Shown piece by piece: positions 19,960 through 57,244 of a DNA stretch of 57,244 nt. Both the position numbers and the translations under genes were made by a program. Position 1 is the first letter of the stretch; each line of letters opens with the position of its first letter. The DNA lies in assembly GCA_900128395.1 (NCBI GenBank), contig LT649257.1, forward strand, positions 1-57,244, written 5' to 3'. The notes below the pieces were generated by a model, which was given only the letters and a program-made list of their open reading frames with translations, had not been told where the DNA came from and searched no databases. The DNA is from Stramenopiles sp. TOSAG23-2. Its lineage: Eukaryota.

Positions 19960-21934
19960 TTAAGTTGTCAGATGAATGTTGTTTAAGACTACCCCGATTG
20001 GTGAATACTCGATCTTATTATTAGATGCTTCCTCGGTCTTATTATTAGATGCTTCCTCAATCTTATTATTAGATGATTCCTCGATCTTATTATTAGATGA
20101 TTCTAACCCCTTTTTAATACCTAAACTCTTGTTGTTATTTACTAATAAACTTTGTATGTCAGTAATATTAAACCTCTCTTTTTTTCCATATATATTAAAC
20201 CTCTTTTTTTCTTTTTTTTTCATAATATTATTACCAGATAGGTCCAACGTTACATTGTATCTTTTTCTTTTTAATGCATCTTGGATACTTTGTACATCGG
20301 TAATATTATTATCAGCTAGATTCAATTCTGTTAATGCATTGTTTGTTTTCAATCCTTCACCAATACTTTGTACATCGGTAATATTATTATCATAAAAACT
20401 TTGCACATCAGTAATATTATTATTATTTAGGTACAATGACGTTAATGCATTGTTTGTTTTCAATCCTTCACCAATACTTTGTACATCGGTAATATTATTA
20501 TTATATAGGTTCAATTCCGTTAATGCATTGTTTGTTTTCAATCCTTCACCAATACTTTGTACATCGGTAATATTATTATTCACCAATACTTTGTACATCA
20601 GTAATATTATTACTATTTAGGCCCAATATCTTTAATGTATTGTTTCTTTTCAATGCTTCATAAAAACTTTGCACATCAGTAATATTATTATTATTTAGGT
20701 ACAATGACGTTAATGCATTGTTTGTTTTCAATCCTTCACCAATACTTTGTACATCGGTAATATTATTACCATTTAGGTCCAATCTCGTTAATGTATGGTT
20801 TGTTTTCAATCCTTCACCAATACTTTGTACATCGGTAATATTATTATAAGCTAGGTACAAGTCCTCTAATGTATTGTTTGTTTTCAATCCTTCACCAATA
20901 CTTTGTACATCAGTAATATTATTACCCCATAGGTCCAATATCTTTAATGTATGGTTTGTTTTTAATGCTTCACCAATACTTTGTACATCAGTAATATTAT
21001 TATTATTTAGGTACAATGACGTTAATGCTTTGTTTGTTTTTAATCCTTCACCAATACTTTGTACATCAGTAATATTATTACTATTTAGGCCCAATATCTT
21101 TAATGTATTGTTTCTTTTCAATGCTTCATAAAAAATTCGCGCATCAGTACTTGTAATATTATTATTATCTAGGTACAACTTTGTTAATGTATTGTTTCTT
21201 TTCAATGCTTCATAAAAACTTTGCACATCAGTAATATTATTATTATTTAGGTCCAAGTACTTTAATGTATTGTTTATGTTTAATGCATGACCAATACTTT
21301 GAATATTTGCAATATTATTATTATCCAATCGCAACATATATAACGTCTTGTTCGTTTTTAAAAATTCCCCTATAATTTTTACATTTGTAATCTTATTACC
21401 AGTCAAGGTCAATTCCTTTATTGTATTCTTCATTTTTAATATTTTAAAAATTGCGACGCTTTGTTCATATGTGATATTATTATTTTGTAGGTCCATGGCC
21501 TCATTATTATCAGGCCCATTATTATTCAATAGCCGATATATCTCATTTTTCTTTACTATTATGACAGGTGTACTTGGTTTTCTTACAGTTTTCTTGGTCT
21601 TCTTACAATGTTGTAGTCCCAGTATTCCTGGGTTATATAGTATGTTGTTATCCGTATAACATACTGTTCTTCTTTTCCATTTCCATTTTCTTATTCCCGT
21701 TCTTCTCCTATCTGCTTCTTCTTCTCTTTTTCTTTTCTGCTTTGCTGTGAATTGTTTGCTATGCCGATATCTACCTCGTGAAGTGGAGTGTTTTACTCCA
21801 GTTCGATGTTTTGCAACTGCTTCTCTGTTTTTTTTGTTTTTCAACAGGAGTTTCGATTTAATATCCTCTTGCTCTTTTCTATATTTTCGTTTTCTTTCTC
21901 TTTCTCTTTTTTGGTTTAGACTATGCTGTTTCAT
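19960..21934 (-). pseudogene. RI-like leucine-rich-repeat gene (26-aa repeats) with basic N-terminus; frameshifted at ~20579 (ORFs 20576..21934 and 19960..20598)
   Basis: About 15 repeats of type NNITDVQSIGEGLKTNxxLxxLxLxx. A 44-nt deletion relative to the 78-nt module creates TAA at 20576-20578, and the array continues in another frame. The first ORF could still make a truncated 452-aa protein. Confidence 0.85.
20010..20105 (-). repeat. 24-bp coding tandem repeat (EE[A/S]SNNK[I/T]), about 4 copies
   Basis: TCTTATTATTAGATG[CA]TTCCTC recurs with a 24-nt period. Confidence 0.85.
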
Positions 21935-22248: not shown

Positions 22249-22482
22249 TTTCAGGCAGGTTTCAGGCAGGTTTCAGGCTGGTTTCAGGCTGGTTTCAGGC
22301 AGGTTTCAGGCAGGTTTCAGGCTAGTTTCAGGCAGGTTTCAGGCAGGTTTCAGGCAGGTCACAGGCAAATCAGGAAATCGCAGGAAAATCGCAGGAAAAT
22401 CGCAGGAAAATCGCAGGAAAATCGCAGGAAAATCGCAGGAAAATCGCAGGAAAATCGCAGGAAAATCGCAGTTAAATCGCAG
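22249..22482. repeat. Two abutting 11-bp tandem arrays: (TTTCAGGCWGG) ~10 copies, then (CAGGAAAATCG) ~9-10 copies
   Basis: Directly visible; followed by two ~38-bp repeats CCCTGCTGTGT..ACAGGTGACGGAAAAG at 22550-22624. Confidence 0.95.
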
Positions 22483-23117
22483 CAGGCATATATGCAAGCA
22501 TATCTGACGAGAAGGGCTGCTGTGCTGCTGTGTTCACTGTACCGTTTAAGCCCTGCTGTGTTCATATGTGACAGGTGACGGAAAAGGCCCCTGCTGTGTC
22601 CATATAATAACAGGTGACGAAAAGTGAAAAAGTAAATGTCCCGGACATATAGTCTAGATGGAATAATATCCTATCAATTATTAAATTACCATTTTTTTTG
22701 TCCGATTCCATAACAGTAAGTGCAATTTATTTTGGTATATTAATAAGTATAAGTCTCTATAGGGAATATTTCCAATTACAGGCCATTTTATAAAAATAAC
22801 AGATTCCCAATTAGAGTACACCAATACCCCCCCCCTAGTACTTTTTCCAACTTAACTATACTACTCTTTCGTACTACAACTAAAACTAATAATTTAAATT
22901 CCTTATTTACTTTTTTAACTTCTTTTCACATATTTTCTTTTCCTTTCCTGGACTACCCTACGCGCACTCTAATGCAGGGGATAAAAAATACACATTCTTC
23001 AAATGTATGTATATACTATAGATTACACACATATGTATATATATGTACATATATATACAACTCACAATTCAACTTATACCCCCCCTCTCCCTGTATTTAT
23101 TTAAGCATACAAACACC

Positions 23118-24266
23118 ATGATACAAGTATTAACGACGAAAGTTCTGCTAAAAAGATCTATTGCCTCAATAAAAAAATCATCTGTCAATAACAATTATAC
23201 TAAACGGAGTTTGAAAAAGATATTTAATAATGGTTTCAACAGTGAGGAAAGGTGTTTTTCCACTTTTCATTCTTGGAATTTTAATCGTATCAGTAATTTC
23301 CCATGTTCTGCCAAGTTGAAGTGTTTGGCTAAGCCACCGTTTTTGGCTGGTACAAACTTTAGCATAAATGGTGTTCTAGGACACATCAATTATTATAATT
23401 ACAACAATGTGAAATATTATAGTAGTAGTGCTTCAAAAAAAGAGGAAGAAGACGAAGATGATTTAAATGACCTTAGTCAAGATGCCGAAGAAGATTATGA
23501 TGATTATCATGACCCACACTCAGTTGAAGATCTTGTTAAAGCGGAAGAGAAATCGAGTTATGAAAAGTATTTGCCAGTTGTAGCAACATGGGGTCCAAGG
23601 ATACTTATTGGTGGTGGTATATCCTATTTAACAACAAAAACATTTTTATATGTTAGTAATACACTGTTAGGAATAACACTTTCTGATGCTGTTTATTTTG
23701 GTTTATTCAGTGGTTTTGTAGGTGCTTCATTATTATACGGAGGCGCCTTTGCATATTATCAAACGTTCCAAAATGTTCGTCCAGAGCCAGTGTTTGCTAA
23801 AGCAATAAAAAAAATGGCGAATAGTGAAGATATTACTGGCATACTTGGAAATATTGGAACATTCAGCTCAATTCAAAGTGGATTTGTACGTGCCTATAAA
23901 TTAGATGGTGGCGATTGGGGCCTAGGTCCAGGTACAAGAGGATTCGCAATACCAACATTTTTAGGAGAAGATAAAAAGTTAGTATTTCGATACCCACGTG
24001 TTCAAATGTGCTTTCAAGTGTATGGTGAGAAACACCAAGCAATGTGTACGGTTGAGGCAATTAATGATCGTGGCAAAATTAAATTTAATTTAATAATGTT
24101 GGATATATTAACAGCACATGATAATGAAGAGTTACAGGATCCAATTTTGGTATATGGTAACGAAGATAGAATGTATGTGCGTGATCAATTGACAGGTTTT
24201 ATTGATTTCAAACGAAATTATTTGGTTGATCCAAAAACATCCGCAGAAACTAGGATGAAACATTAA
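23118..24266 (+). CDS. Mitochondrial inner-membrane TIM21-like protein
   Basis: Basic/Ser-rich presequence and TM segments, then RPEPVFAKAIKKM..RAYKLDGG..MCFQVYGEKHQAMCTVEA..FNLIMLDI, resembling plant/algal TIM21-like proteins. Likely ATG at 23118 (ORF open from 23043). Confidence 0.6.
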   Translation: MIQVLTTKVLLKRSIASIKKSSVNNNYTKRSLKKIFNNGFNSEERCFSTFHSWNFNRISNFPCSAKLKCLAKPPFLAGTNFSINGVLGHINYYNYNNVKYYSSSASKKEEEDEDDLNDLSQDAEEDYDDYHDPHSVEDLVKAEEKSSYEKYLPVVATWGPRILIGGGISYLTTKTFLYVSNTLLGITLSDAVYFGLFSGFVGASLLYGGAFAYYQTFQNVRPEPVFAKAIKKMANSEDITGILGNIGTFSSIQSGFVRAYKLDGGDWGLGPGTRGFAIPTFLGEDKKLVFRYPRVQMCFQVYGEKHQAMCTVEAINDRGKIKFNLIMLDILTAHDNEELQDPILVYGNEDRMYVRDQLTGFIDFKRNYLVDPKTSAETRMKH

Positions 24267-24889
24267 GTTATTAATATATATATATATATACATATTATGG
24301 TAAATATTGTGGTGTATTCAGTAAAAAAGGGGAGTAAAATGCAAGAAATTTTTTTTTATCTATCATACGTACGAATATATTTTTTGAGGAATTTTAACAT
24401 ATATATATATCATACTGATCATATATGAAATTATGCTAGTAACAGTGTGTCTCAATGTCTCAATACATAATGCATAAAATTTTGGAGAAGAATATATATA
24501 TATTCATATATAGTTACCCGGTAAAATCTAAGAGTGTTAATAAAAAATAATTTTACACTCCCCGCGCGTGCTAAGAGTAAATAATATGATGCTCAATTAC
24601 TCAATCGCAAGAATAATATTCTATCCTATGATACTAATAGTAAAGCTCTAATGCACCTCTGCAAACTAATACTCTACAAGCATGAGTAGGTTTCTATCCT
24701 TCCGTGCGCTTTCGTTCAATTTAATGATATGCATAATTTATTTTACTAATATGTGATAAATCGTTAATGCATTAAAATGTTCATTTGGCGAAGAATTATA
24801 ATGAATTATACTCCCTTGGTCACTCTTCAAAATACCAATGGAGATAAATAGATGGTATCAACGTACAGTTGATGGAAAATGTGCTCTTA

Positions 24890-26419
24890 TCATCCCTGTT
24901 GAACTACGTACTTTGAAGTCTTCCTCTGTTTTATTCTATTTTTGAGTGATTTCTTCGCGCCCGTTTCCCTTTCTAATATGACTTTGTATGATTCAAATTT
25001 ACAATCATAAAGTTGTTTCCATCGTGGGATTTTTTTTTTTGCCTTTTTCTTTTTTCGAAGTCCCTCATCATCGTTGGAGTTATTGTCATCAATTACTTTT
25101 TTCCGATTTGCTGCTTCCATTTCAGCACTTAATGCGCTTTCTCTACTTTTTTTAATTTGATCTATGCCACCCAAAGATAGCTGGTGTACTTCTAAAGAAT
25201 TGCGTCTCTCTAATCTATCAGCTTCTAAGGACTGACGAATATGTTGATGACGTTTAGACATTGTCGCTATTTTTTGTTCCTTAGCTTTGTCGTTCATTTT
25301 GAATTTTAAATACGTATTTAATCTTTCAAAATCAGTGTCATATTTGTACAAAGCATATATACATTGGCTATCTCCATCAGTAATACATTGTTTTGCTTTT
25401 ATTGCTAATTCTTTATTTAAAAATCCACGTTTATGCAACATATCAACAACATGTTTTAACTGCATAATCATTTCCGGGTCAAATTCTACATCTGGCGAGG
25501 CATAAAATACATTAGCAGCACTCATTAAGCCCATGAACTGTTCCTTACTATGTTCATTGTGTTTCATAACTGGGACATGGTAATCTACACCATGAACATT
25601 TGTCTTTTGATGTGCTATATCAAAGTTTTTAGATTCAGGAGTATACTCGTTTAATTCAAGTATTTTTTTGAGTAAATGTACATCCCCTGGATTCATTTCG
25701 TATTCAAAAAAAGCTGCCTTTATTTCCACCGCTTGGATATTGTTTTTTAGCATTTGATCTACGCGAATTTTCTCTGCCTGTGTTATTTCATGTTTTTGCA
25801 CCATGACTTCCATCACTTCATCGTAAAGCAATAACTCTTTCGGATCTAAATTCCAGTATTCATCATCTAGAGTTTTTCTTCTCTCAATAGTTGATGAACA
25901 TTTGTCAAGAAAACGCCTAAGGGGTAAAATGGATTCTGATCGTCTATACTTAGATATAGCCATTTTTAAATCCAACAGACAGAACTTTGATTTAAACATG
26001 TATTCAATATGGTCGTAATCATTTTGACTTATTTTTTTACGCTTTAACAATTTGTTTACAAGTTTTCGATAAGCACTCATGTCACCTCTGCTCCATAAAT
26101 CGACACTTGTCCCAGCTTTGCTAGTTGCATCATATTCATGCATCTGGAACGATAGCATATTGTTATAATAAAGGACAAATTCATTGAAATCAATAGCACC
26201 ATCGTTATCGCCATCGATTTTTGCAAATTCGGAAAGTATTCGTTGATTATTTGAATCGTTCGATAACTCAGATGCTGTAAAACAAAGTTTTTCTAACGCA
26301 TTCGTTAATTCCTCTTCATCTATCATACCATCATCATTAGTGTCTATTTCATGAAATATTTCACGTACACGATCCTCAAGATCATGCTGATCAAACAATT
26401 CAGCACTTCTGCTGATCAT
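24890..26419 (-). CDS. EF-hand protein (two N-terminal EF-hands), function unknown
   Basis: Canonical loops DTNDDGMIDEEE and DGDNDGAIDFNE; 509-aa ORF. Confidence 0.85.
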   Translation of the reverse strand: MISRSAELFDQHDLEDRVREIFHEIDTNDDGMIDEEELTNALEKLCFTASELSNDSNNQRILSEFAKIDGDNDGAIDFNEFVLYYNNMLSFQMHEYDATSKAGTSVDLWSRGDMSAYRKLVNKLLKRKKISQNDYDHIEYMFKSKFCLLDLKMAISKYRRSESILPLRRFLDKCSSTIERRKTLDDEYWNLDPKELLLYDEVMEVMVQKHEITQAEKIRVDQMLKNNIQAVEIKAAFFEYEMNPGDVHLLKKILELNEYTPESKNFDIAHQKTNVHGVDYHVPVMKHNEHSKEQFMGLMSAANVFYASPDVEFDPEMIMQLKHVVDMLHKRGFLNKELAIKAKQCITDGDSQCIYALYKYDTDFERLNTYLKFKMNDKAKEQKIATMSKRHQHIRQSLEADRLERRNSLEVHQLSLGGIDQIKKSRESALSAEMEAANRKKVIDDNNSNDDEGLRKKKKAKKKIPRWKQLYDCKFESYKVILERETGAKKSLKNRIKQRKTSKYVVQQG

Positions 26420-26603
26420 GTTGCTTAATCAATTATGTATAAATTTTCCTTTATTTAGACAACATTAATTGAATTGCTAGCTTTATATATATATATATAT
26501 ATATAACTACACTAAATATTATATACATACCTGGTATACCCACACGTATTTATTTTACTATTATTACAATTACTTCAATTACGGTAGTACTTGGTAGTAT
26601 TAT

Positions 26604-26739
26604 TTATTATTTAGGTTCAATTCCGTTAATGCATTGTTTGTTTTCAATCCTTCACCAATACTTTGTACATCGGTAATATTATTACCATTTAGGTCCAATC
26701 TCGTTAATGTATGGTTTGTTTTCAATCCTTCACCAATAC
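26604..26739 (-). repeat. Orphan LRR cassette (about 1.7 modules) related to the LRR gene
   Basis: 26624-26739 is identical to 20708-20823, and 26612-26684 is identical to 20506-20578. Encodes IGEGLKTNHTLTRLDLNGNNITDVQSIGEGLKTNNALTELNLNN with no start codon. Confidence 0.95.
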
Positions 26740-27238
26740 CCCCCCCACAAAAGCTGGAAAAAGCCTACTGGTATTGCAAAAAATCCAAAAATAGCTATAG
26801 CCAATACTTATTTTGATGAATATACTAAGAATATCCGATTTTTGCAATATTAATACCAGTAACTTTGTATCAAATATGCATTAAGAATAATATAATTTAG
26901 ATACTACTGAGCGTCGTGTGTTCCGACTAATTATTAGATACTAAATTATCACTGAAATTAAACCCTAATCCCATCCCAACCACTGCCAAACTTTTTTGCA
27001 GGTACTGTATGCTGGTATGCCTGCACGCCTTAACAAGCCAGCCCAGCCAGCAACAAGGAATAATAATAATGGCCTTAGCACCTAAATGGAAAAAAATAAT
27101 TATGATGGAATTATTAATATATATTAATTGAATTAATCTAGAATTAATAGAATCACATAACAATATACAACAATTACATGTACTTCATATAGAAAATCAA
27201 GTGAAATCAAAAGAAAAACTAAAGGATATAGCGATACA

Positions 27239-27529
27239 ATGGCAGAAGCAATGGACACAGATACCACAGTAGAAAATGTATTGCCTTTGGATACGATTGA
27301 AAAATGTGTTGGAAAAAAAGTATGGGTCATTATGAAAAATAAAAAAGAATTAGTAGGTACACTTAAAGGCTATGACGACTATGTAAACATGGTTATGGAG
27401 GACGTCACTGAATATACAGTAACTTCAGATGGAAAGCAAGTGACAAAACTCGAAAGTATTTTGTTAAATGGCAACAATGTTACGATGTTATCCACAGGTG
27501 AACCGTCAAAGCCGTATAAATTAGAATAA
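27239..27529 (+). CDS. LSM5: U6 snRNA-associated Sm-like protein LSm5
   Basis: [57 protein letters not shown] is the LSm5 signature. Confidence 0.95.
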
Positions 27530-27830
27530 TTGGTACACAACTAAGCAAATTATTTTTGGACATGATTATATATTTAATACATATAGACTATGATACGAGG
27601 AGTATACCAGGATAATAATTGTGAGGAAGGCGAGGATTTAAAATAGTTCGTAGTACGCACGCTTCGTAAAAAAATAGCAAAAAAATACTTAGAAAAGATT
27701 GCAGAGAGGCGGGAGATAGAGAGGAGATGATTTCAAATTAAAATTCTTATTCATATGAGTTGCCTTTTAATATATTACGATTCGTAGACGAAATATATTT
27801 TTCATTTGTATCCTCTTTTTAAAAATATGA

Positions 27831-27997
27831 GAATATCAACACCCTAGCTATTAGTGTGAGATAGATATTATTATATTGCCTCTCAGTCATTTTTGTACGC
27901 GTTCGTACGAAGTGTTAAAATATATATTTTTTTACTCTTTTCAATAAGAAATTAAAATCATATTATGAGTAAATAAAAAAATAAGCGTGTAAATTAA
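27831..27997 (+). repeat. Dispersed intergenic repeat family A, copy 3 (interrupted)
   Basis: GAATATCAACACCCTAG..AGTGTGAGATAGAT..CTCAGTCATT and ATGAGTAAATAAAAAAATAAG match copies 1 and 2. Confidence 0.65.
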
Positions 27998-28359
27998 ATT
28001 ATACGCGCTCGGTGTAATATGATATACGAAGTCGTTATGTAATTACGTGTATATAACACCCTCTTATACAACAACACTCATATCATATAATATGCATATT
28101 TAATATATGATATGTGATATTTATGATACATCCTTCGTATGATATTTCGGTTTATAATATATTAATATCATATAAAATTAATTTACGCATAACTTATTAT
28201 ATCTAATGAAATATGCACATATATATTATATACGTGTATCAAAGCATATGCAACAAAGATTATCATCCTATTCAATAGTAAAAAATGAATCTCTTCTTTA
28301 AAAAATTCATTCTCATATGATAGTTAAACAAATATCATTCATTTGCACTATAACATGTT

Positions 28360-29475
28360 CTAATACAACCTTCCAGCTGAAAAGCCACGGCTAGTCCCAA
28401 CATTATTCCATGAATTAGAAGGATTACTGGTAGCAGTTGTATATAAATTTCTACCTGCAATACCACTAAATGATGAATTACCTGCATTTGTCATTGAATT
28501 TCTCAATGCTGCATTTTGTGTAACTAATGCTTGTCTTTGATTGTATGACATCAACTGCGCTTGGTATTGCGCCAATGCCATTTCATGCCGTGTTTTTCTA
28601 ACATCATTCTCCGTTTGAAATAAACTTGTTTGTATATTATGTGCATAAGTACGCTGTGCTTGACCACGTGTAATATATTGTTGTGCAATTCGTGCTGCAT
28701 TTTGCGCTTGCTGCTGTGCTCGTAATAAATTCGCTTGAGAAAATCTTGCCGCATCAATCGCACGTTGTTCTTCCATCGCCATTTGTTGCGCATATTGCTG
28801 TGCAGCTACGGACGCTTGGCGCTGTTGCAACAATCTCGATTCAGTACGAATCAACGTATGTCGTTTGGCTTCAACTTCTGGAGAGTAAAAGGTAGAAGAT
28901 GATGATAAATTTGACGTTGTTGGAATATACGAAGATGTAGCAGTGTTGTTGTTGATATGACTCATGGCGCTACCGCCCATAGTATTACTTCCTGTTGCCA
29001 TAAGTGGCACTGGTGGTGCAAATTGATTTGCTGGCATGTAATAATTTCCACCTGCCATTGGCAATGGCATTGGAGGCGGAACGCTATTCATTGCCTTTGC
29101 TAAATTAATATTGTTGATAACACTAAGCCTATCATTTTCTAATGATATTATTCTTGATACCAGTTGCTGCAAAACACTTATGGAATCGGCGTCATATCCG
29201 TAAGTATCAGCAATACGTCGTTGGTTTCTGTGTGCTTCATTAGTACGTTCTAGAGCAATTTCAATATTTTCTAATTGTTTCTGCAATTCAAATTCGTAAT
29301 ATTGTGGCATTTGTGTTGGAAACGTTGAACTTGCAAGGAACGGATCATCTTTTACATTGTTTTCTTTCTTAGTATTATCCTCGTCCACTACTTCTTTAAC
29401 ATTATTTTCTTCTACTTTTGTTTCCTCAGTGGCAGGTGGCTCATTCTTTTCTTTTGATTTTTTCGATTTCTTCAT
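28360..29475 (-). CDS. Hypothetical Gln/Ala-rich coiled-coil protein
   Basis: ~370-aa ORF, first ATG at 29475, low-complexity Q/A and Pro-rich segments; no family recognised. Confidence 0.75.
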   Translation of the reverse strand: MKKSKKSKEKNEPPATEETKVEENNVKEVVDEDNTKKENNVKDDPFLASSTFPTQMPQYYEFELQKQLENIEIALERTNEAHRNQRRIADTYGYDADSISVLQQLVSRIISLENDRLSVINNINLAKAMNSVPPPMPLPMAGGNYYMPANQFAPPVPLMATGSNTMGGSAMSHINNNTATSSYIPTTSNLSSSSTFYSPEVEAKRHTLIRTESRLLQQRQASVAAQQYAQQMAMEEQRAIDAARFSQANLLRAQQQAQNAARIAQQYITRGQAQRTYAHNIQTSLFQTENDVRKTRHEMALAQYQAQLMSYNQRQALVTQNAALRNSMTNAGNSSFSGIAGRNLYTTATSNPSNSWNNVGTSRGFSAGRLY

Positions 29476-29917
29476 TGTTTGAAAATTCAATTATACGTTG
29501 TTACTTGTTTATATTTCTTCGTTTTGAATGTTCAGTAATATATCGTTTTATCTGTTTTATGAAAGAATTACCTCACCTGTCTTTGGTTTCTATAACATGT
29601 ATAAATATATCTAATATTGGTCTCAACTGTAACCTAATAAATTAATAATATAATAAATTACCAACGTTTTTTGTAGCAACTGTACGACGTATTATTAGCG
29701 CTTGGAAACTTTCCTGGTGCTATTTAATGCTAATTGCTATTTGTTCAAATCTGTTTCAGAACCCTTAAAAAAGTAGCTTCGGAAAAATAGCATAGGAATA
29801 CAATGGGTTATTTAGCATAGAAATAGTATGGGAAACTCGCTAGTGCAAAGTATATCGGTATTAGTAGTGTAGTCTATAATAGTGCCCTATCAATAATAAT
29901 TTCAAGATCAATAATCT

Positions 29918-42514: not shown

Positions 42515-43251
42515 ATTGGTTTATTGTGTAAGTGTGTGTTTGTGTGTTTTGTTCTTTATTGATATCTTTTACATGTTGCAGTACAGTATAATAATTTTAC
42601 ATTGTAAGAAGAATATTCTAAATAATAATATAATAAAAAAAAATTTTTTTTTTTAGAGCCTTATTATTATTATTATATTACTGTACATACATGTATGCTT
42701 ACGTGCTTAGACTTAATTTTCTTCCAGGAGGCCGGAGCATTGCACCATTTTGTGTTTACTTTAAGGAGTCTATAAATAAGTAGTCGTCGAGTGCCAGGAG
42801 TGCCAGGAGTGCTGGAGTGCTGGAGTGCCACGCCGCTGAAAAGGTACCTGTAATAATAATACCTGTAATAAATTCAATAAATAATACAGGTAATAATATT
42901 ACCTGGTATAAACAAAAAAAAAAATATTATAAATTAAGGCCCATTTACATTATTCTAATTTATGCTTATTATATATGCTTATTATTTTATTGAAAATAAT
43001 AATAATATATATCATTTTTTAAAAATATTGAAGAGGAAAGAAAAAAGAAAGTTATATATATATATTATGTATATATACATATATATTCACTCATACAATC
43101 TCTTATCATACCTATGTTATCATCGTTTTTTCCACTAAAATCATATATAAATTACATTAAGTTTAAGTAAAGTAATTGATATCGTATATATATATCGTAT
43201 ATATATAAAAAAATAAAAAATATTAACAACATTAAAATTCTAATAATAACT

Positions 43252-57070: not shown

Positions 57071-57244
57071 ATTTCAAGTTTTGTTATTATACATATATAT
57101 ATATATATGAAGAAATGATACGTCTCTTTACGAAATCTATACCTATACAAATATATAATTTGGATATGTACATGTTTCTATTTTTTCTTTCATTTTTTTA
57201 AGAAAAGAAAAAAGGCTGGAAAAGGGAGAGGGGGGGGGGGGAAA

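Follow-up and report, generated by a model that had tools for sequence, protein, structure and literature searches.

An orphan leucine-rich-repeat fragment between the EF-hand and LSM genes of a marine protist: a probable strain-polymorphic insertion with the marks of templated repair

The window, by which we mean the whole 57,244-nt stretch of DNA that was analysed, is AT-rich eukaryotic DNA (33% GC) that harbors a gene built of leucine-rich repeats (LRRs) and, between a gene for an EF-hand protein and one for an LSM-domain protein, a short orphan piece of the same kind of repeat. The latter position, which the preliminary description had already given correctly, is bounded by the ATG of the EF-hand gene on the minus strand (about 26419) and by that of the LSM gene on the plus strand (27236). 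The genes and elements among which the fragment has to be placed are the following:

19963 to 21496, minus strand: LRR gene, an array of 78-nt (26-aa) units with a C-terminal tail, in two frames with a break at 20578/20579
24890 to 26428, minus strand: EF-hand protein gene, recognized by Pfam, one uninterrupted frame
26484 to 26506, no strand assigned: (TA)n microsatellite, about 100 nt left of the insertion
26766 to 26861, no strand assigned: hairpin-forming multi-copy repeat, here called R2, with terminal inverted arms of about 17-19 nt, 17 nt right of the insertion and present in both alleles
27236 to 27529, plus strand: LSM-domain protein gene, recognized by Pfam, one uninterrupted frame

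Sampled 31-mers of the region 22600-28400 are present in 20 of the 24 listed public runs (12 studies). The largest shares, 0.95 and 0.91, belong to two small runs labelled with one organism name, and the same 31-mers are also found in many marine or seawater metagenome and metatranscriptome runs, with 14 DNA runs holding at least half of those sampled. Because of this distribution across runs, we conclude that the source is an abundant marine protist, and that its assembly was probably made from low-input samples.

The first ATG just upstream of the LRR repeats, at 21496, was taken as the putative start of the LRR gene (about 19963-21500). Pfam finds LRR_4 (122.6 bits against a cut-off of 27) and LRR_8 (68.5 bits) on its translation P0001, together with LRR_6, and LRR_4 is found again (42.9 bits) in the frame downstream of the break. 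On the coding strand the 78-nt unit of the array reads NITDVQSIGEGLKTNxxLxxLxLxxN. Two of its units are cut short:

20575 to 20608, minus strand: truncated 34-nt unit, NITDVQSIGE then a stop (...GGTGAA/TAAT), frame shifted, junction at 20578/20579
20386 to 20418, minus strand: twin truncated 33-nt unit, NITDVQSFYDN (...TATGA/TAAT), frame kept, same breakpoint to within 1 nt

Around these units the array (20200-21500) is pieced together from stretches repeated exactly within it (111, 88, 69, 63 and 61 nt), which we read as a sign of recent conversion or unequal exchange. Thus, 20330-20390 equals 20519-20579 over 61 nt; 20390-20500 equals 20658-20768 over 111 nt and starts exactly at the junction of the in-frame twin; and 20579-20666 equals 21047-21134 over 88 nt and starts exactly at the frameshift junction. 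One may picture a truncation that arose once, in frame, and was then duplicated along with its flank, after which a conversion tract ending at that homology break would have left one extra base, and with it the frameshift. The frame downstream of the junction is the true coding frame because it stays open for 205 codons, about 90 of them non-repeat, and because the C-terminal tail matches that of P0154 from an independent ENA contig at 87% identity, the indels between them keeping the frame; the frameshift would accordingly be either recent or strain-specific. The protein searches brought up no natural allele reaching the frameshift junction: the best matches to the repeat region are 59-61% identical, orthologues at 90% or more were not found there, and P0154 is closer in the tail only. 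Rescue of the frame by an intron, for which a 25-nt GT..AG stretch would serve, was rejected as ad hoc because RPB2 and the EF-hand and LSM genes are each one uninterrupted frame and the twin unit needs no intron. A +1 ribosomal frameshift at GAA-TAA could in principle explain the frame break, but nothing supports it. In the tail, a 24-nt tandem repeat of four copies (20008-20103) encodes SNNKIEE(A/S) repeats and is conserved in P0154. Stretches resembling an out-of-frame LRR unit, such as LIIILLMIVEYKVLLMD, are also seen in the LRR relatives P0155, P0156 and P0161 on ENA contigs of 8-102 kb, with the frame regained afterwards in one of them; frameshifted or oddly spliced units may thus be common in the family.

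A BLAST search of the LRR array against the 57-kb window returned 81 HSPs. As all 16 of those that lie off the array fall within 26586-26739, the fragment between the EF-hand and LSM genes is the only orphan LRR piece in these 57 kb, and the further start-less cassettes that one might have looked for are not found there. Its likeness to the gene (132 nt at 97.7-100% identity) is far above chance. The likeness reported in the preliminary description is confirmed: 26612-26684 matches 20506-20578 letter for letter over 73 nt, the match ending on both sides and, in the gene, at the frameshift junction; and an ungapped alignment of 26604-26739 to 20688-20823 has exactly three mismatches, at 26617, 26622 and 26623, which turn SLY into ELN on the coding (minus) strand. 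The longest exact blocks shared with the gene are one of 116 nt (26624-26739, equal to 20708-20823) and the one of 73 nt, and the combination that results is, as had been stated, a mosaic that no contiguous stretch of the present gene matches exactly. Past 26684 the fragment continues with 44 nt (26685-26728) and then with TTCACCAATAC (26729-26739), as the LRR gene does from 20579. It had been proposed that these are exactly the 44 nt missing at the frameshift. The arithmetic is right (34 + 44 = 78), but the point is neither specific nor diagnostic because every full 78-nt unit holds an equivalent stretch; indeed, the fragment's own 44 nt stand in a full unit of the gene at 20769-20812, inside the 116-nt exact block.

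What sets the fragment in its proper frame is an allele that does not have it. Metagenome contigs were searched with the N-terminus of the EF-hand protein, and of the 91 stretches that matched, two encode a relative. The closer one lies on a 4962-nt metagenome contig, L001, whose encoded EF-hand protein is 98% identical over all 197 residues. The other (L002) encodes a protein only 33% identical and was set aside. L001 is collinear with 24798-29824 of the window, the aligned left part (1732 nt) being 99.3% and the right part (2725 nt) 96% identical. At the site itself it reads ...GGTAATATTATTTAT/AAAAGCTGGAAAAAGCC..., or with a longer left context ...ATTACGGTATAGGTAATATTATTTAT/AAAAGCTGGAAAAAGCC..., so that its flanks (...TATTTAT/AAAAGCTGG...) meet exactly at the boundaries of the insert, whereas the window has 141 nt between those same bases. 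The window thus carries, relative to L001, a clean insertion of 141 nt (26608-26748) with zero target bases lost or duplicated, which can be laid out as follows:

26593 to 26607, plus strand: left target flank, GGTAGTATTATTTAT, corresponding to GGTAATATTATTTAT in the empty allele (window-L001 alignment)
26608 to 26739, minus strand: LRR-derived part of the insert, 132 nt or about 1.7 repeat units, coding sense ...IGEGLKTNHTLTRLDLNGN NITDVQSIGEGLKTNNALTELNLNN, absent in L001
26740 to 26748, plus strand: filler between the LRR copy and the right flank, CCCCCCC (26740-26746) and AC (26747-26748), absent in L001
26749 to 26765, plus strand: right target flank, AAAAGCTGGAAAAAGCC, directly adjoining the left flank in the empty allele

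Hence, the edges first drawn for the fragment, 26604-26746, enclose a real LRR copy but do not coincide with the insert, and by alignment to L001 the stretch 26587-26607, though it resembles a diverged cassette edge, is native target sequence. An allele of the L001 type is also present in the metagenome run X3, where the loose contig end before 27148 equals 2261-2290 of the reverse complement of L001. The exact 24-nt pattern of the window's left flank had 0 matches in the metagenome contigs.

The intergenic region as a whole varies strongly between strains, and its several indels range from 6 to about 80 nt in length. At 26529/26530, L001 is longer by about 80 nt, mostly ATT-rich (1731-1810 of its reverse complement), and one metagenome allele covering 27007-27143 of the window shows further indels, among them insertions of 10 and 6 nt at 27074 and 27111. 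The repeat R2, which begins beside the insert, looks like a MITE: as a 95-nt element or thereabouts (L001 2987-3071) it has the arms TACTGGTA..TTGCAAAAA / TTTTTGCAA..TACCAGTA, its DNA fold z-scores are -2.5 and -3.4, and it has no match in Rfam. In three metagenomes its summed contig depth is 45-526 against about 2.6-18 on neighboring covered bins (the left flank is uncovered in X3), and loose contig ends lie at 26766 and 26843. Other copies of R2 have one more inverted pair on their flanks, TTTGATAGAGAG / CTCTCTATCAAA.

The two ends of the insert differ in kind. On the left, the target in the empty allele ends in GGTAATATTATT(TAT), of which GGTAATATTATT is a 12-nt match to the LRR unit. On the insert's strand this motif closes the LRR units and precedes ...ATTATTTAGG, so that copying starts in register save for one extra T. 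In the window the 12-mer occurs seven times on the plus strand (six in the array and one in the insert) and once on the minus strand, at 42892; with a motif so rare beyond the array and the insert, an occurrence right at the junction cannot be put down to chance. The homology at the time of the event can nevertheless be given only approximately, because the left flank of the window has a G, inside the 12-nt match, where the empty allele has an A. On the right, the LRR copy stops at CACCAATAC and goes on as a run of C, and these two together (26731-26746) are a 16-nt exact match to 22819-22834. Runs of at least seven C are found only three times on the plus strand of the 57 kb, and CACCAATA has 16 occurrences, nine in the array, two in the insert and five elsewhere in the window. 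A second template switch, through the 9-nt CACCAATAC to the site at 22819, is therefore probable, though the target may instead, in the lineage of the window, have possessed CACCAATAC with its C-run natively before the event. For the final AC (26747-26748) no template was found. The junctions can thus be summarized as 12 nt of homology on the left, 9 nt at the internal switch and two unexplained bases on the right. Target-site duplication, terminal inverted repeats and poly(A) are all lacking at the ends of the insert; the search for inverted or direct repeats bracketing it was negative, as were scans for Rfam families and tRNAs around it. The sequences from which it may have been copied all lie on the target's own strand, the LRR array about 5.9 kb and the 22819 site 3.9 kb away:

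20692 to 20823, minus strand: candidate donor 1, contiguous in the present gene, with units HTLTRLDLNG and NNALTSLYLNN and 3 mismatches to the insert
20506 to 20578, minus strand: alternative donor (ELN unit) for 73 nt at the left of the insert, abutting the frameshift junction
22819 to 22835, plus strand: candidate donor 2, CACCAATA then nine C, intergenic, beyond the 5' end of the LRR gene

The mosaic nature of the copy can be described in two ways. It may represent 20692-20823 with a 3-nt patch that matches the unit at 20506-20578, or it may represent the latter unit with one change (at 26611), preceded by an intact HTLTRLDLNG unit. The stretch of the gene that differs (unit 20687-20764) belongs to the 111-nt tract now identical to 20390-20500, and must for this reason have been overwritten recently. 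Moreover, since the array is a patchwork of exact tracts, a difference of the size of the 3-nt patch from the present gene is to be expected. The fragment thus plausibly preserves an earlier state of the array or came from another allele, and, as in the version of the preliminary description, the unit at the frameshift junction may once have been full length.

In three marine metagenomes, the listed contigs on 25800-27700 that cover the left flank stop at about 26566-26572, and those on the right start at 26903, 27007 and 27148. No listed contig bridges the junctions of the insert, and none gives a joint; the gap of about 26573-26902 is uninformative, as Logan contigs break at repeats. Depth on the repeats is in keeping with the window, in that an exact 45-mer at 54.9 and a 43-mer at 75.9, against 9.7-11.7, fit the window's five and six copies, with four and five copies being indistinguishable at this resolution. 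RNA contigs over the fragment are pieces of 32-49 nt that are not gene-specific. Contigs matching the LRR core at 26632-26695 with at least 95% identity reach summed depths of 10,762-35,610, and 285 in a poly(A) metatranscriptome; the DNA motif family of this core is extremely abundant in seawater.

We propose that the fragment is a strain-polymorphic insertion, templated and primed by microhomology during the repair of a break or a switch of template in replication, which copied a state or allele of the array that is missing today; this is the account we consider likely. A break or stalled fork at 26607/26749, in the EF-hand/LSM intergenic region, would have exposed a left end in ...GGTAATATTATT(TAT), and this end would have paired with the matching motif that closes an LRR unit about 5.9 kb off on the same strand. 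The pairing would have primed the copying of 132 nt, or about 1.7 units, whereupon the new end in ...CACCAATAC would have switched to the 22819 site with which it shares 9 nt and copied the C-run. Two more bases would then have been added before the joining to the other end of the break, without loss of target. We infer the break itself, the order of these steps, the enzymes and the origin in the cell rather than in the tube. It is speculation that the hairpin element 17 nt away or the (TA)n tract about 100 nt away caused the break. As the copy matches no contiguous stretch of the present gene exactly, it would seem to record how an array under reshuffling by conversion and unequal exchange once looked, or how it looks in another allele. 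A templated repair insertion was one of the two readings that the preliminary description had offered, and it is now backed by the empty-site allele, the primer-like homology of 12 nt and the probable second template at 22819-22834. The fragment itself most likely has no function.

An event of this kind belongs to a known class and opens no new mechanism. Filler DNA in yeast and plants is the same type of patch insertion at repaired double-strand breaks; MMBIR/FoSTeS is a model of repair or replication by template switching; and typical inserts made by polymerase theta are far shorter than the present one and have their template no more than tens of bases from the break. Class 2 templated-sequence insertions are described in PMC5110952 as having no target duplication or poly(A) and as showing microhomology and non-templated bases at their junctions, and for the human events RNA or cDNA patches have been proposed there. 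With these insertions and with filler DNA, the present one shares a short copied stretch whose site is unoccupied in other individuals, junction microhomology, a few untemplated bases and an intact donor, alongside the lack of target duplication and poly(A) (as class 2 is characterized in PMC5110952). It differs in that its candidate donors are close at hand, 3.9 and 5.9 kb off on the same strand, whereas those of the human events given in that source are distant, and in that its host is an uncultured marine protist. With MMBIR/FoSTeS and with polymerase-theta end joining that yields templated insertions (as presented in PMC7165422 and PMC5466332), it has in common serial switches at short homologies (here 12, then 9 nt), templates nearby in cis and a complex insertion as the result; unlike them, it has a last junction without microhomology.

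Could the insert instead have been made in the tube? A displaced 3' end that switched to the LRR array during single-cell whole-genome amplification would give an amplification or library chimera, and the organism would then lack the insert; we hold this to be unlikely, though several observations speak for it. The two small organism-labelled runs that hold the region best (shares 0.95 and 0.91) fit single-cell or low-input samples, and among the listed contigs of the three metagenomes none bridges either junction, so that the filled allele is seen only in the window. Chimeras of multiple displacement amplification (MDA), as characterized in PMC1855051, likewise join segments less than 10 kb apart through microhomology: complementarity of 2 bp or more (21 bp at most) is found at 76.8% of their junctions, a share that rises above 90% for segments within 10 kb. 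However, 406 of the 475 MDA chimeras counted in that source (85%) are inverted two-segment joins, whereas all the segments here are in direct orientation. Three junctions, and hence three switches, would be needed within about 150 nt, and the last would have to return to the exact next target base without any guiding homology; for a repaired break this exact return needs no added assumption because a break has two ends. Furthermore, copying in the tube would be expected to reproduce the gene of the same assembly without change, and the insert differs from it by the 3-nt patch. A misassembly of the De Bruijn type was excluded, the junction homologies of 12 and 9 nt being below the usual k-mers and the junction with the right flank having none.

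Another possibility is that an older LRR paralogue, or a segmental duplication, left the fragment behind as a relic and that L001 lost it by deletion, which would reverse the presumed polarity of the event; the great variability of the intergenic region between alleles, with indels from 6 to about 80 nt, leaves some room for it. We nonetheless deem it very improbable: the 97.7-100% similarity breaks off sharply on either side and is not continued by any decayed LRR sequence, and a deletion would have to have taken precisely the LRR sequence and the C-run filler for the flanks of L001 to meet exactly at the boundaries of the insert. Lampreys and hagfish assemble their VLR genes from flanking LRR cassettes, and VSG, pilS and vls are silent-cassette systems. 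By analogy to these, the preliminary description had raised the alternative that the fragment is a functional silent donor, kept for copying into the LRR gene to restore or vary its frame. A start-less LRR piece in the gene's orientation, near an LRR gene with an incomplete frame, does invite the comparison, as do the use of short homologies in copying, the identity of its first unit to the unit beside the frameshift junction, the signs of active conversion in the array, and the size and abundance of the LRR family in marine metagenomes (summed depth of matching contigs of about 10^4 on the core; 203 relatives). However, in place of an arsenal there is a single fragment in 57 kb, it is missing from the close relative L001, and it appears to have been copied out of the gene rather than into it; a VLR- or VSG-like cassette thus fails on both of the defining features examined, cassette number (in these 57 kb) and conservation in a relative. 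The LRR gene here, in distinction to VLR, has a full array and no non-coding spacer; the 44 nt stand already in the gene's own array at 20769-20812; the frameshift could have come about without a donor, by a 1-nt change in one of two truncated units, the other of which is in frame; the junctions, C-run filler included, resemble repair scars and show no recombination signals; and no transcript contig listed joins the fragment to its flanks. The cassette reading is therefore unsupported, and we give it hardly any credence. Capture of a gene fragment by a transposon (MITE, Pack-type or Helitron) draws on the nearness of R2, a multi-copy element with inverted terminal arms that begins 17 nt right of the insert. 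R2 is also in the empty allele, though, and so did not bring the fragment, and the insert has neither bracketing inverted or direct repeats nor a target duplication, which makes this explanation extremely improbable as well.

If the templated insertion is natural, it offers a cleanly resolved case of a multi-template, microhomology-primed event in an uncultured marine protist, with filled and empty alleles and both candidate templates known; it would show how scraps of coding repeats scatter into promoters, and it would keep a snapshot of a fast-changing LRR array. For annotation, it carries a warning: a start-less gene fragment close to a repeat gene should not be taken for part of a cassette system until the site has been checked for an empty allele. 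On a bolder reading, to which we assign a very small probability, copy-choice primed by homology goes on continually in the LRR arrays of this very abundant marine protist family and reshuffles them, and the fragment is one of its off-target products. This reading is compatible with the long exact tracts of the array, which end exactly at the truncated-unit junctions, and with the out-of-frame LRR stretches on the contigs of relatives. Were it true, it would imply a germline or even clonal diversification of LRRs, comparable to a primitive VLR-type assembly, into which the fragment could feed back.

Some further features of the window may be recorded. Between the LRR gene and the next gene, 22249-22482 is occupied by two adjoining tandem arrays of 11-nt units, TTTCAGGCAGG in 10.8 copies and CAGGAAAATCG in 10.3. 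Runs of at least seven C or G are present at four loci in the 57 kb, where base composition predicts about 0.4. Twelve consecutive G at 57230-57241, which stop 3 nt short of the window's end, follow GGCTGGAAAAGGGAGA; they may be an artefact of the contig end or a native homopolymer.
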